Source: a virus
Taxonomy: Duplodnaviria; Caudoviricetes
Reading direction: 5' to 3' (one strand)
Length of the DNA: 64,000 nt
Virus record (IMG/VR): IMGVR_UViG_3300020576_001287
Location: 1-64,000 of that record
In this document: positions 682 through 47,644 of the stretch, piece after piece
Layout: each line of letters begins with the position of its first letter
How positions within the stretch are numbered: the first letter of the stretch is position 1
Position numbers and translations under genes: made by a program
Notes under the pieces: generated by a model
What the model saw: only the letters and a program-made list of their open reading frames with translations
The model's database searches: none
Told to the model about the DNA's origin: nothing

Positions 682-1407
682 ATGGGACGAAGACTACAGA
701 GTATACTAGGCAACACATACGGGCAACTGACCGTAAAGAAACATTTAGGTAAAAAGGGAAAATACCTATGGCACTACTGGGAGTGTTTATGCACTTGCGG
801 GGGTATAAAAGAATACCCTACAAATTCTCTTATATCCGGTAACGTTCTTAGTTGTGGTTGTCTAGCTAAAAAAACTAGGCAGGAAAATTTTTCTAGGATA
901 AAAAAATTGAAAATAAAAAACTGGCTGGGTATAAGGCAAGGTAATCTACTGTGCTTGTCTTTCAGCGGTAAGCCATTTGCGAATAAGCTAAACTATTGGT
1001 TGTGTATATGTGATTGTGGTAAGCTACTTTATGTTAATAACTCTGCCCTACATGCTGGGCAGTATAGTTGTGGTTGTCAAACTAGACCGGCTTTAAAAAA
1101 TGCTATAGACATAAAGTACCCTGCTAATAGACCCATAGCTAAAAGCAAAACACGAGAGTACAATTCTTGGAAGTCTATGATTTACCGTTGTTACAGTACC
1201 ATATCACCTAGTTATCAATACTATGGAGCTAAAGGTGTAGTGGTTTGTGCCAGGTGGTTAGAAAGCTTTGACAACTTTTTAGAGGATATGGGTAACAGGC
1301 CAGATAACACAAGCATTGATAGGATAGACACAACCGGAGATTACACTCCTGATAACTGTAGGTGGGCCGATCCTAAAACACAAACTGCTAACCGAATACT
1401 AAAGTAG
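682..1407 (+). CDS. Free-standing HNH-type homing endonuclease with two N-terminal Cys-rich repeats
   Basis: Two repeats of G..YG.L.V...W.C.C.CG......L..G...SCGC; C-terminal YNSWKSMIYRC...YGAKGVVVCARW..FDNFLEDMG.RP...SIDRID..GDY.PDNCRWA. Confidence 0.8.
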   Translation: MGRRLQSILGNTYGQLTVKKHLGKKGKYLWHYWECLCTCGGIKEYPTNSLISGNVLSCGCLAKKTRQENFSRIKKLKIKNWLGIRQGNLLCLSFSGKPFANKLNYWLCICDCGKLLYVNNSALHAGQYSCGCQTRPALKNAIDIKYPANRPIAKSKTREYNSWKSMIYRCYSTISPSYQYYGAKGVVVCARWLESFDNFLEDMGNRPDNTSIDRIDTTGDYTPDNCRWADPKTQTANRILK

Positions 1408-1579
1408 CTTTAAGGACATGCGAGAATACATACCTAAAATTTTAGAAAACATTTCCGACCTATGCGTACAAAGTGTAATATGTTCGCTAAAGTAACTTTA
1501 GTGTACTTTTGTCCCCACGTACTCATTAGCATCCTACCGATCCAAGGTTAAAAAATATTTGAGTAGAAAATTTTAGAAA

Positions 1580-1867
1580 ATGAAAACACTTGACAAAAAG
1601 CCGATAACAGTTAGCTATGTGGAGTTTATTCCAGAGGTAGCAGATTTACAGGATAATACCATGTACATATCTGAGCAGTACAACTGTGCTATACATAAAT
1701 GCTTGTGTGGCTGTGGCAAACAGGTAGTTACTCCATTAGCTTCAAACATGTGGGCTGTAACCAAAAACCCTGATAACACTATAGACCTTAATCCATCTAT
1801 AGGAAACTACAACTTACGCTGCCGGTCTCATTATGTAATCAGAAAGAACGTTGCAATATTTATGTAG
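1580..1867 (+). CDS. Small Cys/His protein resembling DUF6527
   Basis: HKCLCGCG...VTPL...W....LNPSIGNY...CRSHYVIR motif pattern; family recognised from memory. Confidence 0.65.
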   Translation: MKTLDKKPITVSYVEFIPEVADLQDNTMYISEQYNCAIHKCLCGCGKQVVTPLASNMWAVTKNPDNTIDLNPSIGNYNLRCRSHYVIRKNVAIFM

Positions 1868-1882
1868 TGTCAAATTAATTAC

Positions 1883-1890
1883 TACCTTTG
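1883..1890 (+). promoter_or_regulatory. -7 box TACCTTTG not followed by an ORF
   Basis: Matches TAnnTTTG just after the 1580-1867 stop. Confidence 0.4.
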
Positions 1891-1919
1891 CTCTGCCTTA
1901 CCAAGCTGTATGCAAACTT

Positions 1920-1979
1920 AATCCCCTGCCTATGTCTGCCGTCTATTGCGGTAGCTTACTGGCTGGGGGTTTTGTTTTT
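1920..1979 (+). terminator. Long stem-loop followed by a T-tract (intrinsic terminator or 3' end of a small RNA)
   Basis: CTGCCG(1936-41)/CGGTAG(1949-54) inner stem; AATCCCC/GGGGGTT outer stem; then TTTTGTTTTT. Confidence 0.55.
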
Positions 1980-1991
1980 AGATATTTTATA

Positions 1992-1999
1992 TACCTTTG
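1992..1999 (+). promoter_or_regulatory. -7 box TACCTTTG
   Basis: Matches TAnnTTTG 16 nt upstream of the ATG at 2016. Confidence 0.5.
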
Positions 2000-2015
2000 C
2001 TTCAAACTAACTTTT

Positions 2016-2432
2016 ATGGCTAACGTAACAATGGAGCAAGAGGAAAAAAGGTTTAACAAGATATATAATTACATCGTAGGAGCTTCGGCTGTGCTATTGA
2101 TTGTAATAGTTTGTTTGGTATTTGTCCATATACCCAAGGATAACCAACAGTCAGCTAATATGGCTCTTGCTTTTTGTATGGGAGCTTTTACCGCTTTATC
2201 CGGTTACCTTATTGGGGCTTCTCCTGACAAGAAGCAGAATAATACTGGAATTACACAAACTCCGGTGCCCCAGGTAATAGCCGAGCGTAAGAACGATAAG
2301 GTATACCGGCTTATAGATGCTGCGACTACTTCCAGCCAGCTTACAGAGATAGGTACTACTTATGCTTTGGAAATGTCTGATGATCCGGCTTTAAAGGATT
2401 ATTGGGATAAGGCAATAACTAATATTAAATAG
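2016..2432 (+). CDS. Two-TM membrane protein (possibly holin-like or lysis-associated)
   Basis: Hydrophobic helices YIVGASAVLLIVIVCLVFV and MALAFCMGAFTALSGYLIG; start moved to ATG 2016 because 1851-2015 contains a terminator and a promoter box. Confidence 0.6.
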   Translation: MANVTMEQEEKRFNKIYNYIVGASAVLLIVIVCLVFVHIPKDNQQSANMALAFCMGAFTALSGYLIGASPDKKQNNTGITQTPVPQVIAERKNDKVYRLIDAATTSSQLTEIGTTYALEMSDDPALKDYWDKAITNIK

Positions 2433-2471
2433 TCAATTTATTTCCATACTTTTGTTCAAAAATATATAGTC

Positions 2472-3233
2472 ATGAATAAAGCGGAATTATCAATATTTGT
2501 AGCTAACAACTTTGACAATGGTGCTAAGGTTGTAGGCGATACCAGGTTACAGACAGCCTTGGAAACTATTATTACGCTATTAGGTGCTCCCGAAACTTTC
2601 ACTGCTGCCGTTAAGTCTTCTTCGGCTACAGGTGGTGTAGGGTATGCTACCGGAGCTGGCGGGGCAGTATCTCAGGCTACCTTTGCCCTTGCAGGCGTAG
2701 CTATTGCAGGAACAGCCGGACAGTTTACATGTACAGCATCTACGCACCCGCTGACTGTGGGTACTAAGGTTGCCATATCAGGAACAGCCGGAGGTACAGG
2801 AAGTATCACAGGATACAGCGATCCTACTACCTACTACATTATCGCTACCAATGGCAGCACTACATTCACACTGTCTGCTACTGCCGGTGGTTCTGCTATC
2901 ACTACAACAGCGGGTACCCCAACTGGTCTTACGTATACAGTGAGTGCAAAGTCTGCCGGTGTTACCCTTAACAAGGTATCCGGTGCGATCACTACGCTTA
3001 CTGCTTCTATGGCAGCTAGTTCCAGTGTGAGCTTTACACTTACCAATTCTACCATCGGTGCTAACGATGTGGTGCAACCATCTATAAAGTCCGGTGCTTC
3101 TACCGGCTTATACAAGGTAAGTACTACTGCCACTGCCGCTGGATCATGTCAACTGACAATAGAAAATATCGGTTCTGCTGCCGCTGAGACCGTAGTTATC
3201 AACTACGTTGTTATCAAAGGTGTTGCAGCTTAA
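2472..3233 (+). CDS. Gly/Thr/Ala-rich beta-strand protein, probably virion-associated (spike/decoration-like)
   Basis: TGGVGYATGAGGAVSQAT...GVTLNKVSGAIT...VSFTLTNSTI...VVINYVVIKG pattern typical of phage structural proteins. Confidence 0.5.
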   Translation: MNKAELSIFVANNFDNGAKVVGDTRLQTALETIITLLGAPETFTAAVKSSSATGGVGYATGAGGAVSQATFALAGVAIAGTAGQFTCTASTHPLTVGTKVAISGTAGGTGSITGYSDPTTYYIIATNGSTTFTLSATAGGSAITTTAGTPTGLTYTVSAKSAGVTLNKVSGAITTLTASMAASSSVSFTLTNSTIGANDVVQPSIKSGASTGLYKVSTTATAAGSCQLTIENIGSAAAETVVINYVVIKGVAA

Positions 3234-3263
3234 CCAAACGATGATTTCAAAATTCATATTAGT

Positions 3264-3289
3264 AGCCTCCTATTCTTAGGAGGCTTTTT
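3264..3289 (+). terminator. Intrinsic terminator
   Basis: AGCCTCCTA-TTCT-TAGGAGGCT followed by TTTT. Confidence 0.8.
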
Positions 3290-3306
3290 GTTTAAAGTAA
3301 CTTTAG

Positions 3307-3314
3307 TAAATTTG
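3307..3314 (+). promoter_or_regulatory. -7 box TAAATTTG of the terminase operon, with the 13-bp palindrome immediately upstream (3293-3305)
   Basis: Matches TAnnTTTG 4 nt before the ATG at 3319. Confidence 0.5.
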
Positions 3315-3318
3315 TGCT

Positions 3319-4029
3319 ATGAAAGATTTAATGCCTACATACAACGCTATAAAACCAAGGCCAGGGCAGAGGCTTGAAATAGGAGAGTCAGAAAAGAAGT
3401 TTTGGACTGTAGAGGACAAGATTGTATACACCCGTAAGATATGTGCCCTTTACGCTACAGGCAAGTATACCTGGGCTACTTGCTGCAATCACTACGGTAT
3501 AAAGCAAAGCCGGTTCCGTAGCTGGATACTTCCGCAGGCAGACATAGAGCAGATGTTATTGGATGGTATACCGCTACCTCCAACCTTTGTAATGGCCTGC
3601 CGTGAGCTATACATAGATGCCAAGGAGAAGTACGCTTACAACTACAAAGAGCGTTTGGTAGATGCAGTACACCGAGGCATATTGAAGAAAGTAGAGGGGT
3701 ATGAGACTTCAGAGACCACTGTAGAGCAGGAGGTAGATACCCGCAAGGTTCTGGGTAACGGTGAGGATAACCCTAACTACGGGCAGCTAACCACCATCAA
3801 GCAGAAGGTAAAGACCTATAGCGTAGCCCCTGATACTTCCATGTTGATATTTGCCGCCACTAACGTTGATCCAACCAACTTCAAGCACCGGAATACAATA
3901 GAGCACCAGGGCAAGGTAGATATTGGGGCCAATAGCCTTGAATCACTTTCAGATACCCAGCTACAACAGAAAAGAAGAGAATTGGAATTAAGATTAGCCA
4001 CAGTAGACCTAGCCAAGAAAAGCGCATAA
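3319..4029 (+). CDS. terS: Probable terminase small subunit
   Basis: Directly upstream of TerL; N-terminal HTH-like segment (ICALYATGKYTWATCCNHYGIKQSRFRSW); helical middle; typical MLIFAATNVDP.NFK...EH.G C-terminus. Confidence 0.6.
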   Translation: MKDLMPTYNAIKPRPGQRLEIGESEKKFWTVEDKIVYTRKICALYATGKYTWATCCNHYGIKQSRFRSWILPQADIEQMLLDGIPLPPTFVMACRELYIDAKEKYAYNYKERLVDAVHRGILKKVEGYETSETTVEQEVDTRKVLGNGEDNPNYGQLTTIKQKVKTYSVAPDTSMLIFAATNVDPTNFKHRNTIEHQGKVDIGANSLESLSDTQLQQKRRELELRLATVDLAKKSA

Positions 4030-4030
4030 C

Positions 4031-6718
4031 ATGGGAGTTATAGATACAGCACGTAGAGCATTAGAGATTGAAGAGATCAAGCGTATGCAAATGCGTGTTT
4101 GGCAGCTTGACCCTATGCTATGGTTAGAGGAGCGGTTTGGGGAAAGTGCCTCTGATTTCAGGTGGAGTGACCTGAAAGAATACGCTAACCACAAATGGGA
4201 TGGACATAAAGACCCATTGTATAATGCCTGGATGGATATTGCTACCGGAAACTGGGCAGGAATTGAAGCAGCTACAGGCTGTCATGCTAAGGGCACTCCT
4301 ATACTCATGCACGATGGGTCTGTAAAGAATGTGGAGGATATTGCAGTAGGTGATGAGCTTATGGGGGATGATTCTACAGAGCGTATTGTCTTATCTTTAG
4401 CACGAGGTAGGCAAACTATGGTACAAATAACTCCTGTTAAAGGGGAAAGTTTTGTAGTAAACCTAGATCACATATTATCTTTAAAAAAGACTAGCACCCC
4501 AGGAAAGTATAAAACTAAACCTGATATAGTAAATGTGAGTGTAAGGGAGTACTTAAAGTGGAACGACCACGATAAGCACTTATACAAGCTGTACAGGGCT
4601 GGGGTTGACTTTGATACTTCTAACGTAGCTATTTCTCCTTATATATTTGGGTTGTGGCTGGGGGATGGAAGTGTAGGGAGCATTGGACTAACTACTATAG
4701 ACGAAGAATTGCGGGTAGAGTGGACTAACTATTTTGAGGGCATCGGATATAATGTTGTTAAAGCTGATAGCAATGGTACAAGATGCCCTACTTACTTTGT
4801 AAATAAGGGCGTTAGAGGGGGTAAGGGCAATAACATACGTACTATATTTAACAACTCTGTGTGTAATGGCGAGAAGAGAATACCTCGTAATTACTTAACA
4901 GGTAACAGGGTACAGAGATTACAGCTACTTGCTGGGTTGATTGATTCTGATGGTAGTAATAACGACAGCTACGTTATTACCAGCAAGTATAAAAGATTGG
5001 CTGAAGATATTACTTTCTTATGTCGTTCATTAGGGTTTGCGGCCTATCTTAAACCAATAAAGTCTATATGCCAAGGCATGTCGGATTATAGGGAATACTG
5101 GTCTGTTAATATAAGCGGTGATTTACACTTAGTTCCGGTAAGGCTTGAAAGAAAGAAAATAGGGCTAAGAAAGCAGAAGAAAAGCGTATTGGTTACAGGG
5201 TTTAAAGTAACTTTATTAGATGCGGATGATTACTATGGGTTTGAGTTAGATAGAAACCACCTATATCTTATGGGGGATTTTACGGTTACTCACAATACCA
5301 GTAAAACCTACATGCTGGCAAGGGTGGTACTATGGTTCCTTGACACCCATCAGGATTCACTGGTAGTTACCTCAGCTCCAAAGCAGGCGCAGCTTACCTT
5401 GCACCTGTGGGCCGAGATTCAAAAGATATTTCACAAGTTCAAGAAAGTACGACCCAAAGCAGCTTTGTATAATCTTCGTCTTGTTGTGGAGGAGCGGGAT
5501 GAGAAAGAAGCAGTAGACTTGGAAAACGCTGACTTATCCAAGTCTTGGCAGGCTGTAGGTTTCGTAGCCGGTGTAGGATCGGATGAGCAGTCAGCAACCA
5601 AGGCACAAGGATTCCACCGTAAGGACATGCTATTAATCGTAGAGGAAACCCCAGGTATGCCCGATGCGATAATGACGGCCTTTATGAATACTTGTACCGG
5701 TGACAATAACATAATACTTGCCGTAGGTAACCCAGATAGTCAGCTAGACCCATTACATCTATTCTGTGAGCTTGGTAACGTTAGAAACTATAGGGTATCC
5801 GCTTTGGACTACCCTAATGTCGTTTTAGGCAAGGAGCTTATGCCTGGTGCCGTTACCGTCCAATCCATAGCCCGTAGGTTAGAGCAGTACAAGGACGTTA
5901 ACTCTCCAATGTACTTATCTCGTGTGCGTGGTATATCACCGGCACAGTCTTCGGACAGCTTAATAAAGCTGGATTGGATAAAGAATTGCAGGGATCATGA
6001 TTTACCATACGATTACTCATATCATGCTGTAGGTGTGGACGTTGCCAACAGCGTGGAGGGTGACAAAGCCGCCCTAGCCTGGATGCGAGGTAACCAATTG
6101 GACGAGATGCAGGATTTCTTCTGTAAAAACGCTACGCACTTGGCCTATAACCTATTTATGGATACTGCCACACTGGATGAGCATAACTATAACGACTACG
6201 GTACTTCCAAGTTGGAGGACTATGACGTAATGGATGGGCTTATAGGAGTGGATACCGTTGGGGTAGGTGTAGCAACATTTAATGCGTTCTTGGATCATGG
6301 TTACAATCCAGTATCCTTATGCGGTAAGCAGTGGGACGAGGTGATACCAATAGATGGGGCAGATTTCTTACCGGACGGTAAAAAGAATCCTAATGCTGGT
6401 AAGCCTCGTTACAAGTTTCAAAACCTACGGTCACATATGGCATGGGAGCTACGTACAGACTTACAGGACGGTAACATAAAAATAAACATAACTGACGAGG
6501 ACGAATTTAATCTTTTGTGTAAGGAGCTAATTGCAGTACGTTTTAAAGAAAGCGGTAACTACATAGTTGTAGAAAGCAAAGAAAACATAAAAAAACGTCT
6601 TGGGGGCAAGTCCCCAAATAAGTTCGATGCTTTGATGTACGCTAACTGGACACGTAAGGGGTATCGTATATTTAGTGGGCTTATGCCGATAATGGCAGGT
6701 AGTTCACAACTTCGTTAG
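4031..6718 (+). CDS. terL: Terminase large subunit (intein-containing)
   Basis: Walker A restored after splicing (AATG|TSKT); Walker B LLIVEE; coupling motif AVGNP; nuclease acidic motifs VGVDVA, GVDTVGVG, NKFDALM. Confidence 0.92.
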   Translation: MGVIDTARRALEIEEIKRMQMRVWQLDPMLWLEERFGESASDFRWSDLKEYANHKWDGHKDPLYNAWMDIATGNWAGIEAATGCHAKGTPILMHDGSVKNVEDIAVGDELMGDDSTERIVLSLARGRQTMVQITPVKGESFVVNLDHILSLKKTSTPGKYKTKPDIVNVSVREYLKWNDHDKHLYKLYRAGVDFDTSNVAISPYIFGLWLGDGSVGSIGLTTIDEELRVEWTNYFEGIGYNVVKADSNGTRCPTYFVNKGVRGGKGNNIRTIFNNSVCNGEKRIPRNYLTGNRVQRLQLLAGLIDSDGSNNDSYVITSKYKRLAEDITFLCRSLGFAAYLKPIKSICQGMSDYREYWSVNISGDLHLVPVRLERKKIGLRKQKKSVLVTGFKVTLLDADDYYGFELDRNHLYLMGDFTVTHNTSKTYMLARVVLWFLDTHQDSLVVTSAPKQAQLTLHLWAEIQKIFHKFKKVRPKAALYNLRLVVEERDEKEAVDLENADLSKSWQAVGFVAGVGSDEQSATKAQGFHRKDMLLIVEETPGMPDAIMTAFMNTCTGDNNIILAVGNPDSQLDPLHLFCELGNVRNYRVSALDYPNVVLGKELMPGAVTVQSIARRLEQYKDVNSPMYLSRVRGISPAQSSDSLIKLDWIKNCRDHDLPYDYSYHAVGVDVANSVEGDKAALAWMRGNQLDEMQDFFCKNATHLAYNLFMDTATLDEHNYNDYGTSKLEDYDVMDGLIGVDTVGVGVATFNAFLDHGYNPVSLCGKQWDEVIPIDGADFLPDGKKNPNAGKPRYKFQNLRSHMAWELRTDLQDGNIKINITDEDEFNLLCKELIAVRFKESGNYIVVESKENIKKRLGGKSPNKFDALMYANWTRKGYRIFSGLMPIMAGSSQLR
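4280..5296 (+). mobile_element. 339-aa intein with LAGLIDADG endonuclease inserted in the TerL P-loop
   Basis: Starts CHAKGTPILMHDG (VMA-like); LAGLIDADG blocks FGLWLGDGS and LLAGLIDSDGS; ends DDYYGFELD.NHLYL.GDFTVTHN; +1 residue Thr. Confidence 0.93.
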
Positions 6719-6728
6719 CATTATTTGT

Positions 6729-6736
6729 TATATTTG
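6729..6736 (+). promoter_or_regulatory. -7 box TATATTTG upstream of portal
   Basis: Matches TAnnTTTG in the 34-nt intergenic gap. Confidence 0.5.
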
Positions 6737-6752
6737 CAGTTCAAGTCAGCAT

Positions 6753-9218
6753 ATGGAATTTGATAGCAGTATAGCACAGATAAGAAATTTTGTAGAGGGA
6801 GCTAGGGCAGCTCGGCAAGTGGATGCAACTTCCCCAAAGGGGGCAGCGGCTATACCTACGCAATCAGGCAGGAGTTCCCAACCACAGAACTCTAGCCTAT
6901 TTGGTATACTTGTGGATGAGATGGCCCAGATAAATCCAGGCTTTGAGTTGGAACTACTAAAGGTGTGCCAACATCTTGCTACTTACAACGGTGACGTATC
7001 TTATGCAGTAGATAACGTATGTCAGCTAGGTAATACACCATACAAGGTTGTATTTGATAGCAGTACCCCAGATGATAGAAAGAAAAAGATGCTGGCGGTA
7101 ATAAGTGAGCAGGGGCAGTGGGTTTACCCTGGGGGTATGAGGATGCTTATTGGTGATATACTGGCTCAGATATATGTTACCGGTGCTGCCAGTGGTGAGA
7201 TAATACCGGATAAGACTTTAAAGTTTGTACAAAACGTAGCCCTAGTAAACCCCATAAGCGTACGATTCTTATACAACCCCAGCAACTATTCCTACGATCC
7301 ATACCAAGCTACCAATGGGTTTGCTGGTTCTGAGATAAGAAAAATGTCAGCTTCCAATGATTTCGGGCTGATAAAGCTAAACCCTTTGACCTACAAGTAT
7401 ATAGCGCATAGGCGATATAATGATAACCCATTTGCTATACCCCCTATACTAGCCTCCTTTGAGGGGATAGAGATAGAAAAGGATATGCTAAATAATATGC
7501 GGCATATAGTGCGTAAGATGGGGGTATTCGGGTTTTTATCTGTCATGGTGACGGCCCCAGTGCGGGAGCAGGGGGAGAAACCTAATGCGTACTTTGATCG
7601 CTGTAACGCTTATCTGTCCAAGATCAAACCAGAAATAGAAAAAGGCTACGCTTCAGGCGTGGCTTTAGGCTTTAAAGGGTTTCAGGAATGGAAAGTAGAG
7701 GGCGGTAATACCAATCTTGCCGGAGCTAAAGAGATATTCCAGCTTGTATCAGAGATAAAAATGGCTGGTTTGAAGCAAGACCCGCTGATGCTGGGTAGGA
7801 ACTTTAACGTAGCCGAGACTATGGCAAAAGTTATCATGTCAAAGCTCATCATGCAGACAGGAAATTTTCAGGCTGTTGCAGGATTATTTATAGCGGAGGT
7901 TATTAAAATGATGCTTGGGCTTAACGGCTACATGGAGAAAAACATAAAGGTAGAATTTGAGCCACCTATGATAGGTGATAGGCTACGTGATGCCCAGGCA
8001 AGAGAAAAAGAAATAGATAACTCACTTAAAGAGCGTGATGCAGGTTTGATCGGACAGCAGGAAGCGGCAAATAACCTGAAGCATGACAGACCGTATGCAC
8101 CTAAAGATGTGGATTATAGCGTAGCCAGGGTATCGGAGACAGCCAAGGCAGCTAAACCAACGGATGGTAAGCCTAAGCCGGTTAAGGATGCTGTAGATTC
8201 AGGGGCTACTAACTATTCTATGGGGTATCTACGCGATCAGCTAACCAAAGGTTACCCAGAATATAACTACGGTAGTTGTGATTGCACTGACATGGAATCC
8301 TTTGCTAAGGAGCCTGGGAATAAAAAATACCTATCGGTATTAAATCAGTACACCAATGATGTTGTAGTGACTTACTACGGGGCTTTAGATAAAGTAACTT
8401 TAAAAATAAAAGATAAGCTGGCATCACTATCACCAAACGCTACTCTTACTGAGGTTACAGATTTGGTATTTTACACCCTGTATAGTGAGTTTACTAATGC
8501 TTATGCCAGCACCCAAGAACAGAACATAAAGAAGTGGGTTAAAAATTCTTACGAGTCTTTTAGAGAGGACAGGGAAGTTTTTGGGGGTAATGATACTGTT
8601 ACGGATAAGACGGGTAAGACAGTTCCAGTACCTGCGGCTGTATTCAGCATGGATGACATAAAGGCTATGGATTACTTTAAAGAGTCCGACTTAGTGTACC
8701 TAACCAGGTTTATTACTGACTCAGACACAATAAAGACCCTGAATAACTACATAAAAGGTGCGTATTTAGCCAAGTTGGGCATAGCCGGTGATGTGAATAG
8801 TACTGAGTTCATTTCTGGCCTATTAGCGGTGCTGAGTGCCGAAGATTGGAAGCTACGCAGGGTTGTTGAGACTTCTGTTAATAAAATGCGTAATTTTGCT
8901 TACGTAACCTCCCTGGCAGAGGTTGGCGTATCGTTTTTTCAGGTTGTTGGGGTGAATGATTCCAAGCAGTGTAAGCATTGCAATAGTATACAAGGGTATA
9001 AATTCAGTGTAACTAGTGCTTATGATAAGGTGAAGAAAGCCTATGGGGGCACACCGGACACTATAGAACAGGATTCCCCGTTTATCACCAGCTTATTTAC
9101 TGGGGATACCGGAATACGATTACTACAGCAGCTAACAGGGGAGGAACTACAGGCACAAGGGTTGATAGGAGTACCACCATTCCACGCAAATTGCAGGGAT
9201 AAAATAGTAATGATATGA
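6753..9218 (+). CDS. Portal protein fused to a C-terminal MuF/SPP1 gp7-like minor head domain
   Basis: Follows TerL; portal-like N-terminal ~460 aa (NPF.IPPILAS..., EFEPP); Lys/Pro linker; C-terminal RRVVETSV.K.RN...GVND..QCKHC...PPFHANCRDKI (MuF signature). Confidence 0.8.
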   Translation: MEFDSSIAQIRNFVEGARAARQVDATSPKGAAAIPTQSGRSSQPQNSSLFGILVDEMAQINPGFELELLKVCQHLATYNGDVSYAVDNVCQLGNTPYKVVFDSSTPDDRKKKMLAVISEQGQWVYPGGMRMLIGDILAQIYVTGAASGEIIPDKTLKFVQNVALVNPISVRFLYNPSNYSYDPYQATNGFAGSEIRKMSASNDFGLIKLNPLTYKYIAHRRYNDNPFAIPPILASFEGIEIEKDMLNNMRHIVRKMGVFGFLSVMVTAPVREQGEKPNAYFDRCNAYLSKIKPEIEKGYASGVALGFKGFQEWKVEGGNTNLAGAKEIFQLVSEIKMAGLKQDPLMLGRNFNVAETMAKVIMSKLIMQTGNFQAVAGLFIAEVIKMMLGLNGYMEKNIKVEFEPPMIGDRLRDAQAREKEIDNSLKERDAGLIGQQEAANNLKHDRPYAPKDVDYSVARVSETAKAAKPTDGKPKPVKDAVDSGATNYSMGYLRDQLTKGYPEYNYGSCDCTDMESFAKEPGNKKYLSVLNQYTNDVVVTYYGALDKVTLKIKDKLASLSPNATLTEVTDLVFYTLYSEFTNAYASTQEQNIKKWVKNSYESFREDREVFGGNDTVTDKTGKTVPVPAAVFSMDDIKAMDYFKESDLVYLTRFITDSDTIKTLNNYIKGAYLAKLGIAGDVNSTEFISGLLAVLSAEDWKLRRVVETSVNKMRNFAYVTSLAEVGVSFFQVVGVNDSKQCKHCNSIQGYKFSVTSAYDKVKKAYGGTPDTIEQDSPFITSLFTGDTGIRLLQQLTGEELQAQGLIGVPPFHANCRDKIVMI

Positions 9219-41088: not shown

Positions 41089-41447
41089 TAAAGGTTATTA
41101 TAGCCGGAGGCAGGGACTTTGATAATTACCAGGCACTGGAAGCAAAGTGCGATAAGTACTTATGCAATGTAGCTAAGACAGAGAGAATACAGATAGTGTG
41201 TGGTGAGGCAAATGGGGCAGACAAGTTGGGTAAACGTTATGCTAAGAATAGAGGATATAGCGTTAAGCTGTTCCCAGCTAATTGGGATTTGTTCGGGCCT
41301 GCGGCTGGGCCATTGCGTAATGGGGAAATGGCAGACTATGCTAGTGTACTTATAGCCTTTTGGGATGGTAAGTCAAAGGGTACAGCCGATATGATAAGAC
41401 AAGCCAAGATAAATAAGTTAATCGTTAGAATCGTAAAATACAGATGA
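41085..41447 (+). CDS. SLOG-fold protein (DUF2493/YspA-like)
   Basis: VIIAGGRDF...CGEANGAD...ANW...AAGPLRN.EM....IAFWDG.SKGT.DMI. Confidence 0.85.
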   Translation: MIKVIIAGGRDFDNYQALEAKCDKYLCNVAKTERIQIVCGEANGADKLGKRYAKNRGYSVKLFPANWDLFGPAAGPLRNGEMADYASVLIAFWDGKSKGTADMIRQAKINKLIVRIVKYR

Positions 41448-43570
41448 GCATTAATGATTTAAGAAACCCATCATGCAGGGCTTGTGGGCTACGTAGGGAC
41501 TGTAAGACTATCTGCAACATGGGTGTAGATGACTTGATAAGCGTAGAGCCGGAATTGGGGGCTATGATGGTTATAAGTGATTACCCAGCTTTAGAGGATG
41601 ATGCTAACGGTACAGTAGGGCAATCATCTAAAGAGGAATTATTTTGGTCTGTAGCTAAAGAAGTGGTAAGGGTAAATACGGACTACATATACTTTACCTA
41701 CGTTAATAAGTGTATGCCCAGGGAATCCCACAAGGTGACTGATGATGAGTTGTTTGCCTGTGCTTCTACGTACCTGAGAAAAGAAATTAAGCGTGTGCGC
41801 CCAAAGGTTATACTTCTTATGGGGGCACACGCTATGAAAGCTTTGGGCTTTAAAGGAATAGTGGGTAAGATGCGTGGACAGACCCATACGCTCACATTCA
41901 AGTTTAATGGTGAACCTTTTGAAACTAAGGTAGTTATCACCCAATCCCCTGTGTACGTAAAGTACAATACCAGCGAGTTAAAAAACTTTGCCTCTGACAT
42001 AAATAAAGCCTGGGGAATATCCAACGGTAGCGAGGTGATGAGGGATTCACCGACTAAAGTAACTTTAATAACTAACCTACAAGAGGTAGAGGAGTTGATA
42101 GGTTACATACATGAAACCAAAGAATGTGCTTTTGACTTTGAAACCACCACACTAACGGACAGAGGTATATTTGATCCCAACTTTAAGGCTACGTTAATGG
42201 CTGTGTCTTTTCAGCATGGTTCGGCTTACACCATACCCTTGTTTCACTTTGATACCCCATTTACTGAGAAGCAAGTACTACACATTTTAAAAAGGTTTTC
42301 AGAAGAGGTGTGGATGAATAAAAGTATCAGGAAGATAAACCAAAATATAAAGTTTGATATGCACGTAGCGGCTCGTTACGGCTTTCCTGTTTTTAGAGGT
42401 AGGTTAGATTGCACTATGGTAATGCACACCCTGTATGATGATCTTACGCGACATGGTATAAAGGAATGGATACCTACATTCTTTCCGCAGTTTACCGGAT
42501 GGGAATTAGAGATAAAAGGTAAGGAGTGGGAGAAGATACCGTTAAAGCAGTTATCAGACTATGCAGGGGTGGATACAGATGCTGCCTTACGTGGTTGCAC
42601 AGTACTGGAACAAAAGTTACTTGAAGACCCCCGTAGCTACCGAATATACCGTAACCTATCTGTGTTTGCTTTAACCACCTTGTATAACATGGAACGTAGG
42701 GGCATGTTGATAGGCAGAGGGGAGATTACAAAGTATGCAGCAAGGGCTGTAGACCTTTTGAAACAGCAGGTGGATATAATGAATAAATACCCACAGGTTA
42801 AACATTTTGTAAGCGAAGAGGCAGAGTTGGCAAAGCAGAAAGTATTAGTAGAGCTACGGGAAAAGAAATCCAGAGCAAAAGGCAAGCAGATAGACAAATA
42901 TGCCGTTAAGATACGGGAAGTAAAGTCAGGGGCTATATCTGTTTACAAGGGTATAAATTTTGGTAGTACACAGCAGCTTGGGGAGTTGTTATACACAGAT
43001 GCTGGGTTTAATTTCAGAGAGCCTTATGATAAGAAGAAAAAGAAAGCAGGTAAGGTTACGGGGGAGGCAGTACTAAAGAACCTTGGGGATAAGACAGGCT
43101 TTATAACAGATGTTCTTGTATATCGTTCTATAAAAACTACCTGGAGCCGGTATTTAAAGGGGCTTGGGTTACTGATGGATGAGCATGACAAGGTACATAC
43201 CACTTTTAAACAAGCAGCAGCCCGTACAGGCCGTCTTGCGTGTGTAGGGGTAGATACATTAATACACACTAACATAGGGCATGTACGAATAGGGGATTTA
43301 ATACCGGAGTGTGAGGGTATTGATGAGTGTATGTTAGGTATAGAAGCACTAACACATACAGGAGAGTTTAAACCTATAACACATGTTATAAACAAGGGAG
43401 AGGAGGAAATGTACAGAGTAGAGATGCACAGTGGGCAAATTATTGATTGTACCATGCAGCATATATTTTATACGGACATTGGTTGGAAAAGTCTGAAAGA
43501 TATTTTAAATTCGCAAACAGAATGTAGAATATTTTATGAACTCACAGATTTATCCGACCCCGAAGTATGA
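41444..43570 (+). CDS. polA: DNA polymerase A N-terminal part (family-4 UDG-like + 3'-5' exonuclease + thumb) fused to split-intein N-fragment
   Basis: CRAC..C and NKCMP UDG4 motifs; AFDFET, NIKFD, YAGVD exonuclease motifs; ARTGRLA then intein Cys1. Confidence 0.9.
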   Translation: MSINDLRNPSCRACGLRRDCKTICNMGVDDLISVEPELGAMMVISDYPALEDDANGTVGQSSKEELFWSVAKEVVRVNTDYIYFTYVNKCMPRESHKVTDDELFACASTYLRKEIKRVRPKVILLMGAHAMKALGFKGIVGKMRGQTHTLTFKFNGEPFETKVVITQSPVYVKYNTSELKNFASDINKAWGISNGSEVMRDSPTKVTLITNLQEVEELIGYIHETKECAFDFETTTLTDRGIFDPNFKATLMAVSFQHGSAYTIPLFHFDTPFTEKQVLHILKRFSEEVWMNKSIRKINQNIKFDMHVAARYGFPVFRGRLDCTMVMHTLYDDLTRHGIKEWIPTFFPQFTGWELEIKGKEWEKIPLKQLSDYAGVDTDAALRGCTVLEQKLLEDPRSYRIYRNLSVFALTTLYNMERRGMLIGRGEITKYAARAVDLLKQQVDIMNKYPQVKHFVSEEAELAKQKVLVELREKKSRAKGKQIDKYAVKIREVKSGAISVYKGINFGSTQQLGELLYTDAGFNFREPYDKKKKKAGKVTGEAVLKNLGDKTGFITDVLVYRSIKTTWSRYLKGLGLLMDEHDKVHTTFKQAAARTGRLACVGVDTLIHTNIGHVRIGDLIPECEGIDECMLGIEALTHTGEFKPITHVINKGEEEMYRVEMHSGQIIDCTMQHIFYTDIGWKSLKDILNSQTECRIFYELTDLSDPEV
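43241..43567 (+). mobile_element. Split intein N-fragment (109 aa)
   Basis: CVGVDTLIHT.IG...I.DL (block A), TMQH (block B TxxH), GWK.L; ends at a stop with no HN. Confidence 0.9.
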
Positions 43571-44531
43571 AATTGCTTATGCTTATGATGGGCACAGGTT
43601 TAGGGATATGCGAATATTAACTAAAGAATACTTACAGGAAGTTTACGTAGACACAGGACTAACACGTAAACAAATGTTTAAAGAACTTAAAATAAGTGAA
43701 CACATGTTACATTGCTCTTATATTCATTGGTATAGCGCAGAGGAAAGAAAAATTATAGGGGGTAGAAAAATAAGTGCCGCACAACGTATAAATAACTCAA
43801 ACAAAATTAATACAGGGGTACCTAGGGTACTTATACCAGTAGATGTTTTACAGGGGTATTTAGATGCCAAACACTCACTTGAAAAAATGTCACGGTTATT
43901 AAACCTAGCACCGCAAACTATAAGGGCTAATCTTAAGCATCATAGGTTAATAGATCAGTTAGTTAAAATGGGGGTTCCTTACGAGAGGGTTATAGCAGCA
44001 AAAAGTTTAGATAGTTTTATAGGTACTAACATACTGCGAGGTTTAGAGGTGGTTAATGTAGACCTATTTTCAGAGGACGTTAAAGTTACTTTACGTGACC
44101 TTGTGTATGCGGAGCAAGCTTTAACCAGTATGAAACACACTATAAAGCATATACGTACTGGGGTAATGGCAAGATTTGCAGCAAGAGGGGTGAAGCTTAC
44201 AGATTATAAATTACCTGGAAGTACTCTTAATTCTACTGTCAAGTTGCTGCTAACAGAGTTAGGGTATGACGTAGTTGTAGAATTTGAAGTGCGGGGAAAG
44301 TTTTATGATTTTAAATTTAAGCGGTACAAGCTGTTGTTAGAAATAGATACTCCATATTACCATAATACAGAAGAGCAGTTGGATAATGATAAATTAAAAA
44401 CCAAGATAGCTAAAGAAAATGGTTATATGCTATTGCGGGTTTGTACGGACAAGAAAGATAAAAAAATAACTTTAAAAAGAAAACTAGAGGCATGTTTAGC
44501 ACCACTACGATTAAAAAGATTACCCCAATAG
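43536..44531 (+). CDS. Free-standing Vsr/DUF559-like (PD-D/ExK) homing endonuclease between the split-intein halves
   Basis: HTH-like N-terminal repeats; EFEVRGKFYDF...LLLEIDTPYYHN.....ND..K...AKENGYMLLRV. Confidence 0.8.
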   Translation: MNSQIYPTPKYEIAYAYDGHRFRDMRILTKEYLQEVYVDTGLTRKQMFKELKISEHMLHCSYIHWYSAEERKIIGGRKISAAQRINNSNKINTGVPRVLIPVDVLQGYLDAKHSLEKMSRLLNLAPQTIRANLKHHRLIDQLVKMGVPYERVIAAKSLDSFIGTNILRGLEVVNVDLFSEDVKVTLRDLVYAEQALTSMKHTIKHIRTGVMARFAARGVKLTDYKLPGSTLNSTVKLLLTELGYDVVVEFEVRGKFYDFKFKRYKLLLEIDTPYYHNTEEQLDNDKLKTKIAKENGYMLLRVCTDKKDKKITLKRKLEACLAPLRLKRLPQ

Positions 44532-44605
44532 GTGTAAGGACTGTAGCAGATATAACAGTAGCTGACAACCATAGTTATGTAGGTAATGGCATTGTGTCTC
44601 ATAAT
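44492..44605 (+). mobile_element. Split intein C-fragment (38 aa)
   Basis: MFSTTTIKKITPIGVRTVADITVADNHSYVGNGIVSHN followed by Ser. Confidence 0.92.
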
Positions 44606-45499
44606 AGTGAGACTCCAAACCTACAAAATATAACTACGCACGTTAAGATTAAGCACCCATTTGTAGAAGAGGTTACAACTTCTGTAAAGAAGTGTTTTCT
44701 TGTACCCAAGGGCTATACGCTTATTAACTGGGACTTTTCGCAGGCAGAGTTACGCATGATTGCCGACCTTGCAAATGAGGTTAACATGATTGCAGCATAC
44801 AAGGCCGGAGTGGACTTGCATAAGCTTACTGCATCTAAGCTTATGAAGATAACTTTAGAAGAGTTCTTACAGTTACCTAAAGTGGAGCAAGACGAATGGA
44901 GGCAGAAAGCAAAGGCAGCTAACTTCGGTTTGATATACGGACAATCTGCTGAGGGCTTTAAAGATTATGCTAAGAACACCTATGGGGTAAAGATGAATTT
45001 AAAAGAGGCCATAGAAATACATACGGCTTTCTTTGTAGCATACCCAGCCATACTACAATACCATGAAGATTACATAAACAAGCAGAAGCAGCATGGTTGT
45101 GTAAGAACGGTGTTTGGGCGTAGGGGCAGATACCCAGATGTAGATAGTGTAGATGACTTTTTGAGAGGTAATGCAGAACGTGAGTTGGTTAACTTTCCGG
45201 TACAGGGTAGCAATGGCGAGAATACAGTATTTGCATTAGCACTACTGGAAAGAAGGTTACCAAAGTCAGTACAATTAGTCAATACAGTACATGATAGTAT
45301 TATGGCGTATGTACCGGACAGGTTGGTACCATACGTTGTTAAGGTAGGTATAGATACTTGTGTTAATACCCCTATGCTTAGATTCTTTGGTAAGCAAATG
45401 AAACATCTTAGTATGGCTGTAGATGCTCAGTTTTCTAAAACAAATTGGAAAGCTTTAGAAAACTGGGACGAAGAAAAGTGGAGGGAAAGTATATGCTAG
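44492..45499 (+). CDS. polA: Split-intein C-fragment fused to DNA polymerase A C-terminal part
   Basis: After HN: SETPNLQN; motif A WDFSQAELR, motif B RQKAKAANFGLIYG, motif C VHDS. Confidence 0.92.
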   Translation: MFSTTTIKKITPIGVRTVADITVADNHSYVGNGIVSHNSETPNLQNITTHVKIKHPFVEEVTTSVKKCFLVPKGYTLINWDFSQAELRMIADLANEVNMIAAYKAGVDLHKLTASKLMKITLEEFLQLPKVEQDEWRQKAKAANFGLIYGQSAEGFKDYAKNTYGVKMNLKEAIEIHTAFFVAYPAILQYHEDYINKQKQHGCVRTVFGRRGRYPDVDSVDDFLRGNAERELVNFPVQGSNGENTVFALALLERRLPKSVQLVNTVHDSIMAYVPDRLVPYVVKVGIDTCVNTPMLRFFGKQMKHLSMAVDAQFSKTNWKALENWDEEKWRESIC

Positions 45500-46287
45500 G
45501 TAAGTTAATATTTGGTGATTGTTTAAAGGTATTAAAGCTTATACCAGATGCCTCGGTAGATATGATATTTGCAGACTTACCCTACGGTACCACAAAATGC
45601 AAATGGGATAGTTGCATAGACTTGGGCGAGCTTTGGATACAGTATAAAAGAATAATAAAAGCTAATGGGGCTATCTTGCTATTTGCTCAATTACCATTTG
45701 ATAAGGTATTAGGGTGTTCTAATTTGGCTTGGCTTAGATACGAATGGGTGTGGGAGAAAACACAAGCTACGGGGCATCTTAATGCTAAGAAAATGCCTAT
45801 GAAAGCGCACGAAAATATTTTAGTATTCTACGAAAATATGCCCATGTATAACCCACAGAAAACAACAGGACATAAGCCCATAAATACACACTATAAACCA
45901 ATACATGTGCAAAATAGAACAAAACTATACGGTAAGGCAACTAAGTCTTTATCAGGAGGCGGGGAAACAGACAGGTATCCAAGAGATGTACTAAAATTCA
46001 GTTCAGATAAACAAAAAATGAAGAGTACAGAATTTATACACTCTACGCAAAAGCCTTTAGCTTTGGTGGAGTATATGATACGAACATATACAGTACCTGG
46101 TATGCTAGTTGTAGACAACACATGTGGTAGCGGAACTACTGGCGTGGCCTGTGTTAATACAGGTAACCCGTTTATACTTATTGATAATGATATTGACGAG
46201 TATAGGAAAGCTAAGAAGAGAATACAAAAACATATAAATGGTACTGACGTGGTTTTTAAATGTCTTTTATTTGATAAAGTAACTTGA
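45493..46287 (+). CDS. Orphan amino-DNA methyltransferase (N4/N6, beta class)
   Basis: GDCL, IFADLPYG, HSTQKP..L, VVDNTCGSGTTG; no cognate endonuclease adjacent. Confidence 0.85.
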   Translation: MLGKLIFGDCLKVLKLIPDASVDMIFADLPYGTTKCKWDSCIDLGELWIQYKRIIKANGAILLFAQLPFDKVLGCSNLAWLRYEWVWEKTQATGHLNAKKMPMKAHENILVFYENMPMYNPQKTTGHKPINTHYKPIHVQNRTKLYGKATKSLSGGGETDRYPRDVLKFSSDKQKMKSTEFIHSTQKPLALVEYMIRTYTVPGMLVVDNTCGSGTTGVACVNTGNPFILIDNDIDEYRKAKKRIQKHINGTDVVFKCLLFDKVT

Positions 46288-46348: not shown

Positions 46349-47644
46349 ATGGACTTGAACGCTTTAAAAAAGAAGCAACAGCAGCTTGATTCTCGGTCTG
46401 GTAGTGACGGGTTTCTCAGCAGAAAAGATTTAACAGCCGATGGTATGGTAGTTCGGCTTGTACCCCCGTCACCGCAACTTGACGGCATGTTTCACCTAGA
46501 GGTAAAAAAGTACTGGTTCCCAACACCGGACGGTAAGAAGCAGGGTATTATATGCGTAAGCACATTCGGCAAGGACAGCGTTATAGAAGAAGAGTTGGCA
46601 ATGGCTAATGAATCTGAAGATGAAGAGCTGTTGGAGTTGGTACAGGAAGTAAAGCTACAGTCTGAGAACTGGATGGGAGTTTTACAGTTGGTGTACAAAA
46701 AAGACCGTAACGATAACGTGATAGGCGTAGAAGTTGTGGACGGGCATGGTAAGATATTGCAGGTACCTAACACATGCCTCAATGCAATTATCAAGCTGGC
46801 TACAAACAAAATGGCCCTTAAAGAACCTACCAAGCATGGTAGCACTGATGGTATCGCTGACCGTGAATACGGTAGCAACATGCTTCTCTCTAAAACCGGT
46901 AAGGCACTATCCACCAAATACGATGCTGCTTTAGATGAGCAGATGGAGATAGAAGAAAAGTACTACCGTGATCTGCCTGACGTTTACACGGTTGCTAAAA
47001 ATCAGATGAAGTCTGTAAGTATGCAACGTGCTTTGATCCGTGAATACCTGTATGGGGAAGCTATACCCAAAGCTGTAAAGGCTAAGGAAGATGCCAGGGT
47101 AGAGGCTCTGAAAGCCTCAAGACCATCTACGGTTAAGAAGAAACCTACAGCAGCATCTGATGACGATGATGACGAAGACGAGGCACCAGCCCCGAAGAAA
47201 AAGGCAGCTAAGAAACCTGTGGAGGAAGATGAGGACGAAGATGATGAGCCGGCTCCGGTTAAGAAGAAAAGTAAAAAGCCTGTTGATGAGGATGACGAGG
47301 ACGAAGCACCTCCATTTAAACCAGTCGGAAAAAAGAAAGCTGCAATACTTCTGGATGCTGATGATGACGATGATGACTATGAGGTACCTGCTACCAAAAA
47401 GGGTAAAAAGCAATTGGAGGAGGACGATGATGACGATGAGCCTATACCTGCAAAGAAAAAGGCTACACCACCAGCTCCGGCTAAGAAAGCAGCACCGAAG
47501 AAGAAAACAATAGTAGACGAAGATGATGACGAGGAGGAAGATATACAGCCGGTTAAAAAGAAGTCATCTGCGCCTGTAGCAGGTAAAGGAGCAAAGAAGA
47601 CAATACTTGATGACCTGGATTTAGACGAGGATGATGACGAATAG
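46349..47644 (+). CDS. Probable single-stranded DNA-binding protein (T4 gp32-like) with a ~170-aa acidic/basic disordered tail
   Basis: VVRLVPP, aromatic-rich core, DGIAD...G.N..LSKTG...TKYD; poly-D/E and KK blocks after about aa 260. Confidence 0.65.
   Translation: MDLNALKKKQQQLDSRSGSDGFLSRKDLTADGMVVRLVPPSPQLDGMFHLEVKKYWFPTPDGKKQGIICVSTFGKDSVIEEELAMANESEDEELLELVQEVKLQSENWMGVLQLVYKKDRNDNVIGVEVVDGHGKILQVPNTCLNAIIKLATNKMALKEPTKHGSTDGIADREYGSNMLLSKTGKALSTKYDAALDEQMEIEEKYYRDLPDVYTVAKNQMKSVSMQRALIREYLYGEAIPKAVKAKEDARVEALKASRPSTVKKKPTAASDDDDDEDEAPAPKKKAAKKPVEEDEDEDDEPAPVKKKSKKPVDEDDEDEAPPFKPVGKKKAAILLDADDDDDDYEVPATKKGKKQLEEDDDDDEPIPAKKKATPPAPAKKAAPKKKTIVDEDDDEEEDIQPVKKKSSAPVAGKGAKKTILDDLDLDEDDDE

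Follow-up and report, generated by a model that had tools for sequence, protein, structure and literature searches.

How might a phage obtain a complete family-A DNA polymerase (PolA) from two separate open reading frames (ORFs) that have a third gene lodged between them? This question is raised by the polA locus of IMGVR_UViG_3300020576_001287, an IMG/VR virus record (Duplodnaviria; Caudoviricetes) of 80,488 bp with an estimated completeness of 95%. We analyzed positions 1 to 64,000 of this record (hereafter the window), in which the + strand carries all the large genes. The locus consists of three successive ORFs (Table 1): the first and the third, which contain the N- and C-terminal pieces of the polymerase, lie in one common frame and bear, respectively, the predicted N-terminal (IntN) and C-terminal (IntC) halves of an intein, and the endonuclease ORF between them shares 35 nt with IntN and 40 nt with IntC. 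We conclude that this is very probably a fractured polymerase gene, in which a split intein and an interlocked endonuclease gene of the EDxHD (Vsr-like) family occupy the codons of the conserved motif TGRLS↓S-xxPNLQN (the arrow marks the point of insertion). The arrangement is most likely functional.

The two polymerase parts and their junction

Pfam searches with the first ORF recovered a family-4 uracil-DNA glycosylase domain (UDG; residues 42-182), a 3'-5' exonuclease domain (DNA_pol_A_exo1; residues 208-392) and the beginning of the DNA_pol_A domain (residues 483-600, profile positions 8-123); the third ORF picks up the same profile at position 123 and follows it to position 352. This indicates that the polymerase domain has been cut at one exact point. 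The DFSQAELR, KAANFGLIYG and VHDS motifs of the C-terminal piece align with those of intact relatives, and joining the flanking sequences (exteins) yields a complete family-A polymerase domain in a protein of 896 aa, which would read TGRLA-SETPNLQN at the join. The closest homologues, P0002 and P0003 (59% identity), are intein-less single proteins of 892-895 aa; together with P0005 and P0012 (the four ranging from 889 to 895 aa) they share the UDG-exonuclease-polymerase architecture and have TGRLSS-DxPNLQN at the corresponding site. A preliminary description of this DNA had placed the three ORFs at the coordinates of Table 1, with the middle one overlapping both neighbours, and had predicted that splicing restores a TGRL(A)S..PNLQN motif; the ORF list and direct reading of the sequence confirm the former, and the motif and length of the intein-less relatives bear out the latter. 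The N-terminal fusion of the UDG domain (window 41444-41990) to the exonuclease-polymerase module is itself a feature kept across the whole phage PolA group P0002-P0028.

Both extein parts can be aligned end to end with intact relatives and retain all the polymerase motifs. This degree of preservation speaks against a polymerase gene that was destroyed by a mobile element and is now dead, with the phage relying on another polymerase, as does the maintenance in several lineages of the cassette with intact catalytic residues. Furthermore, a profile search of the 95%-complete record found no other match to PolA or PolB. A second polymerase might be encoded in the approximately 5% of the genome that could be missing, but we consider a dead gene very unlikely.

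A naturally split class-1 intein

The two intein halves are located on separate polypeptides, with a stop codon after IntN and a start codon of its own for IntC, both in the window and in four other assemblies described below. IntN begins at Cys600 of the first ORF (Cys1 of the intein), the block A nucleophile, which immediately follows ...TGRLA; this cysteine and the block B TxxH signature (T71-M-Q-H74 of IntN) are invariant in five homologues. In IntC the block F aspartate (D20) and the histidine and asparagine of block G (H37 and N38) are invariant across five cassettes. The +1 residue is serine in the cassettes compared, except for a cysteine in L006. IntN is acidic, its 20 acidic against 7 basic residues giving a net charge of -13, and the start of IntC is basic, with a charge of +3 over the first 18 residues. 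The last ~15 residues of IntN form a variable tail, which is dual-coded with the start of the endonuclease.

Weak matches to the Pfam Intein_splicing profile flank the cut, covering positions 9-87 on the N-terminal side and 121-155 on the C-terminal side. When profiles of the two halves were compared with the PDB, IntN retrieved solved inteins only (DnaE, E 9e-8; gp41-1, 1e-6; DnaX, 1e-6), and IntC retrieved the DnaX, DnaB, GyrA and gp41-1 inteins. In fold, too, IntN matches only inteins: its AlphaFold model (pLDDT 82; residues 102-109 form a disordered tail of low confidence) is closest to the IntN of Npu DnaE (4QFQ_A, probability 1.0), followed by gp41-1. These matches indicate that the position of the split is canonical, and profile and model together support the prediction of a naturally split class-1 intein with a HINT splicing domain. 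The resemblance to gp41-1 (PDB 6QAZ, 6RIZ) and Npu DnaE (PDB 4QFQ) extends from the class-1 HINT fold and the split site to the lengths of IntN (~90-100 aa) and IntC (~36-38 aa), Cys1, the acidic IntN and the basic start of IntC; with gp41-1 the window intein also has Ser+1 in common. However, the identity to solved inteins, including these two, is only ~20-25% in the aligned regions, and both the host gene and the extein residues next to the intein are different.

Phage enzymes that are made in fragments and come together without any splicing are on record (PMC3045599), and the intein halves could by analogy be non-splicing modules that dock the polymerase fragments non-covalently, as in the NrdA of phage Aeh1. 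Docking alone would require none of Cys1, TxxH, the block F aspartate, the terminal HN or the +1 Ser/Cys, all of which are invariant across cassettes whose exteins are only ~30% identical, and the break falls inside one of the most conserved motifs of PolA. Hence, we regard docking without splicing as unlikely.

An EDxHD endonuclease gene between the halves

The ORF between the intein halves yields weak Pfam matches to MTES_1575 and DUF559, with none in its N-terminal region, and a word-indexed search returned just the query itself. An exhaustive HMMER search recovered 25 representatives at E<1e-10, nearly all of 310-330 aa and one of them named a very-short-patch-repair endonuclease by its source, along with many shorter proteins that are alike only over the last 70-90 residues. 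Across an alignment of 24 sequences, D258, E269 and D285 never vary, conservation of D271 and K288 reaches at least 90%, and H276 is present in every one of the 8 closest members. The EDxHD family is defined by a Vsr-like fold combined with a composite E, D, H, D motif (Taylor et al. 2011, PMC3239194). The profile of the window family detects the catalytic domain of the EDxHD prototype I-Bth0305I (PDB 3R3P, E 1e-7), and Foldseek searches with the AlphaFold model (pLDDT 89) match 3R3P with a target-normalised TM score of 0.69 and E. coli Vsr (1VSR) with one of 0.54, both at probability 1.0. The N-terminal two thirds of the protein are helical, with a helix-turn-helix-like segment around APQTV, and presumably bind DNA. 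Taken together, profile and structural matches identify the middle gene product as a member of the EDxHD (Vsr-like) homing endonuclease family, with predicted nuclease activity. It resembles I-Bth0305I in the C-terminal Vsr fold, the conserved E, D, H and D, and the N-terminal helical DNA-binding region, with ~20% identity in the catalytic domain.

As EDxHD endonucleases are known in group I introns (PMC2677866; PMC3239194), the endonuclease ORF might conceivably lie in a self-splicing intron within the intein gene, so that RNA splicing would generate an mRNA for a contiguous mini-intein. I-Bth0305I indeed has its gene in a recA group I intron (PMC3239194), whereas the window enzyme is free-standing between the intein halves of polA. 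Its ORF spans the entire interval and overlaps both halves, thereby leaving no space for an intron core. No Rfam intron model matched up to E 1, with sub-threshold noise as the only return. Moreover, IntN ends in a stop codon, and IntC has a conserved Met-Phe or Met-Tyr start in all five loci. An intron within the intein gene is therefore highly improbable.

The same unit in other contigs

A pattern scan of IMG/VR, with alignment of the C halves, identified four sister loci (L006, L007, L008 and L010; Table 1). In each, IntN and IntC share a common frame and a ~320-aa gene in the +1 frame overlaps both, with overlaps of varying length; IntC starts with Met-Phe, or with Met-Tyr in L010. In addition, the PolA protein P0004 (675 aa, 55% identity) is interrupted at the same site as in the window and ends with a homologous IntN, and its partner P0123 (342 aa) begins with a homologous IntC. 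The Logan contig that carries P0004, P0244 and P0123 probably holds the whole unit, the linkage of the three being drawn solely from the equal figure of 31,089 bp given for their contig. Among 28 close UDG-PolA relatives the cassette is present only in the window and in P0004. Insertion occurs in two registers, one codon apart: the window, L006 and P0004 have TGRL(S/A)↓S and L008 has SGRMS↓S, and in the other register L007 has TGRL↓SS and L010 has TGRM↓SS; the spliced length is equal in all of them. A megablast search of the region against GenBank phages and an IMG/VR pattern scan with a single protein gave no matches. Certain tblastn matches in Microbacterium phages that seemed to span IntC residues proved to be ordinary 621-aa polymerases without an intein.

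The arrangement of frames, with IntN and IntC in one and the endonuclease in +1, invites the suspicion that two compensating errors of assembly or sequencing, or programmed frameshifting, conceal a contiguous intein with a nested endonuclease domain: two shifts within the 35-nt and 40-nt overlaps would fuse all three ORFs. Against this, approximately 50 stop codons interrupt the polymerase frame between IntN and IntC (before 44492), and the endonuclease has a conserved N-terminus whose fold is predicted with confidence from about residue 11 onward. The frame pattern recurs in four independent IMG/VR assemblies with differing overlap lengths, and the presence of the same stops and starts in five independent assemblies, counting the window, excludes a frameshift artefact; this alternative is effectively refuted. 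A frameshift near 43536-43570 and 44492-44531 had been named in the preliminary description as what would overturn its account, and none was found. The components it had listed also withstand scrutiny: a natural split intein, in that both halves match solved inteins; a strongly acidic 109-aa IntN with block A, TxxH and a stop; a 38-aa IntC ending in HN and followed by Ser, ETPNLQN and motifs A, B and C, as seen by reading and alignment of the sequence; and a Vsr-like endonuclease, as seen in the matches to 3R3P and Vsr.

Just downstream of the fractured polA of L010 (L010:3630-4590) lies a second candidate fractured gene, in which a 148-aa ORF ends in the N-terminal part of a Hint/intein domain and overlaps an endonuclease ORF with NUMOD4 and HNH_3 domains.

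Table 1. Coordinates of the fractured polA locus in the window and of its sister loci
Locus	Feature	Position	Strand	Length and content	Basis
Window	First ORF	41444-43570	+	708 aa; UDG / 3'-5' exonuclease / family-A polymerase N part, IntN, stop	
Window	N-extein	41444..43240	+	599 aa; ends ...ARTGRLA at residue 599	Pfam; alignment with uninterrupted relatives
Window	IntN	43241-43567	+	109 aa; Cys600 to Val708	Direct sequence reading
Window	IntN stop codon	43568-43570	+		Direct sequence reading
Window	Second ORF	43536-44531	+	331 aa; endonuclease, +1 frame relative to both polymerase pieces	
Window	Nuclease domain of second ORF	~residues 230-326		C-terminal, EDxHD / Vsr-like	
Window	Third ORF	44492-45499	+	335 aa; IntC and PolA C part with motifs A, B, C	
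Window	IntC	44492-44605	+	38 aa; starts MF, ends SHN; block F VADITV, block G GNGIVSHN	
Window	C-extein	44606-45496 (stop to 45499)	+	297 aa; +1 Ser at 44606, then ETPNLQN, motifs A, B, C	
L006	PolA N part + IntN	3851-6088			
L006	Endonuclease	6069-7046			
L006	IntC + PolA C part	7001-8026			
L007	PolA N part + IntN	4052-6085			
L007	Endonuclease	6075-7040			
L007	IntC + PolA C part	7001-8059			
L008	PolA N part + IntN	1770-3407			
L008	Endonuclease	3361-4314			
L008	IntC + PolA C part	4284-5336			
L010	PolA N part + IntN	to 1085			
L010	Endonuclease	1069-2055			
L010	IntC + PolA C part	2034-3092			

Probable mobility of the cassette

Pairwise identities of the cassettes and of their host genes do not agree with one another. 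Between the window and the P0004 contig the exteins are 56% (N) and 63% (C) identical, IntN 48% and IntC 74%. Between the window and L007 the exteins drop to 29% (N) and 36% (C), and IntN and IntC are 63% and 74% identical. With the window-P0004 pair set aside, identities range from 38 to 63% for IntN and from 50 to 74% for IntC, versus 29-39% for the C-exteins. The host of L010 is a member of a different PolA subfamily whose N-extein was not detected by tblastn and whose C-extein is only 26-32% identical; its IntN is 59-61% and its endonuclease 42% identical. Greater similarity among the intein halves than among their host polymerases points to horizontal spread, and the pattern fits with spread by homing. 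Intein-less alleles, which would be the potential targets of homing, are present in the closest relatives, P0002 and P0003. The identity of the endonucleases does not track that of the inteins (29% between the window and L007), and this mismatch hints at mosaicism inside the element.

Interlock of the three genes

At the 3' overlap, codons 320-321 of the endonuclease (TGT TTA, Cys-Leu) share bases with the start of IntC (ATG TTT), and the equivalent in L010 is TGT ATA against ATG TAT. Cys320 is at least 90% conserved among 24 endonuclease representatives, which suggests the same kind of overlap with an IntC gene in most of the family. With the endonuclease start lying inside the IntN tail and the Cys-Leu codons doubling as the IntC start, loss of the endonuclease would prevent the C-terminal half of the polymerase from being expressed. 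The cassette may thus be a self-locking mobile unit that has moved between unrelated PolA subfamilies, a proposal that we put forward tentatively and hold to be possible rather than probable. Such locking would account for the fact that neither an endonuclease-free nor a re-fused form of the window intein has been seen. If it is correct, there would be at least six diverged Cys1/Ser+1 split-intein pairs, which might perhaps serve as mutually orthogonal ligation tools.

Several observations weigh against a fractured gene whose products are spliced in trans. We found no convincing promoter or ribosome-binding site from which the C half could be expressed on its own, scans for sigma-70 promoters and terminators being at chance level. 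Neither does any RNA structure stand out at the IntC start, a region that is A-rich and unstructured on RNA folding, and only a weak hairpin (z -1.6) lies just upstream of where the endonuclease starts. The residue at position -1 is alanine in the window and serine in some relatives, and the source record is itself a viral contig assembled from a metagenome. As regards expression, translation of the C half might be coupled to that of the endonuclease.

Proposed mechanism

The fractured-gene interpretation envisages a composite selfish element that cuts polA into two genes at TGRLS↓S-xxPNLQN. Its class-1 intein would be split at the loop that is the canonical site of endonuclease insertion, with a free-standing EDxHD endonuclease gene interlocked with both halves. 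The two polypeptides would be made separately, and the acidic IntN is predicted to associate with the N-terminally basic IntC. Trans-splicing by way of Cys1, TxxH, the block F aspartate, the terminal HN and Ser+1 would then release the 896-aa UDG-exonuclease-polymerase. The endonuclease, for its part, may cut intein-less polA alleles during co-infection, whereupon the whole cassette would be copied into them.

Neighbouring genes and a repeated near-palindrome

An N6/N4 DNA methyltransferase gene (window 45445-46287) shares 55 nt with the end of the PolA C half and stands between that half and a gene for an acidic-tailed protein (46349-47644). Given that the counterpart of the latter directly follows polA in L006 and L007, the methyltransferase gene may be a separate insertion.

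The near-palindrome TAAAGT(A/T)ACTTTA occurs 24 times in the 64 kb of the window, against 0.13 expected, at both intergenic and intragenic sites (e.g. 18975, 42056, 44082, 49616 and 49752). In the helicase (39189), the PolA N part (42056) and the endonuclease (44082) it encodes in-frame Lys-Val-Thr-Leu, and other members of the endonuclease family lack the corresponding stretch at the position of 44082. It appears to be a binding or regulatory site used throughout the genome and unconnected with the intein.

Relation to known systems and implications

Fractured genes, whose split intein is accompanied by a free-standing gene for a homing endonuclease of the Vsr-like or GIY-YIG type, were described by Dassa, London, Stoddard, Schueler-Furman and Pietrokovski (2009, PMC2677866), who also defined the Vsr-like endonuclease family. 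The hosts in that study are the gp41 helicase, IMPDH, DnaE, NrdA, NrdJ, DNA ligase and terminase, and family-A polymerase is not among them. The window locus likewise has a free-standing endonuclease gene, of the Vsr-like type, between the intein-bearing halves of a conserved enzyme gene. It differs in its host gene and in the fixed +1-frame interlock of the cassette, with its Cys-Leu codons doubling as the IntC start.

Contiguous inteins are also found in the TGRLSS/PNLQN region of PolA, but these, unlike that of the window, are unsplit; besides the bacterial Pol I inteins that Novikova et al. (PMC4760082) mention, they include those of Bacillus phage fHSPT3 (PP626411.1) and L009. The fHSPT3 intein, which contains a nested LAGLIDADG domain, lies four residues upstream (GTA↓TTRLSS), whereas the L009 intein (TGRAAS↓C...HHN↓S) sits one residue downstream of that in the window and has an out-of-frame HNH ORF. 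In fHSPT3 the 1111-aa ORF concerned (L002:1778-5113), annotated as hypothetical, is the main part of a family-A polymerase with the LAGLIDADG intein, and it is the gene upstream that is annotated as DNA polymerase A.1. In L009 the contiguous PolA with intein is 1281 aa long (L009:4307-8152), its central part being low-complexity read-through, and an HNH_3 endonuclease ORF of 180 aa (L009:6513-7055) lies in another frame inside the unsplit intein. A more distant UDG-exonuclease-polymerase, P0023 (1089 aa, 34% identity), from a Logan contig of 50,957 bp, contains a contiguous mini-intein elsewhere, inside motif B (NFG.↓C...HN↓CYGQS).

The layout is thus already known, and what is new is the family-A polymerase as host gene together with a small family of split-intein sequences. 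A literature search, which covered sources outside subscription journals and intein databases and so leaves an earlier description possible, found no published split-intein or fractured family-A polymerase. The preliminary description had overstated the novelty of the arrangement, which follows the published one with only the host gene being new. Its companion suggestion, that phage replication depends on the split-intein pair, is plausible given that neither a second PolA nor a PolB is evident.

The finding adds family-A DNA polymerase to the enzymes that are fractured by a split intein and a homing endonuclease, and should be of use to intein engineers and students of homing elements, even if it will not surprise the specialist. 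The six diverged cassettes, with 38-63% identity to one another in IntN and 50-74% in IntC, have the same Cys1/Ser+1 chemistry as the fast gp41-1 intein and are reasonable candidates for ligation tools. The dual-coding interlock, along with the mismatch between intein and extein similarity, provides a natural data set on how cassettes move and how their endonucleases persist. For the phage itself, insertion in the TGRLSS/PNLQN motif of the sole polymerase found suggests that replication should depend on protein trans-splicing.

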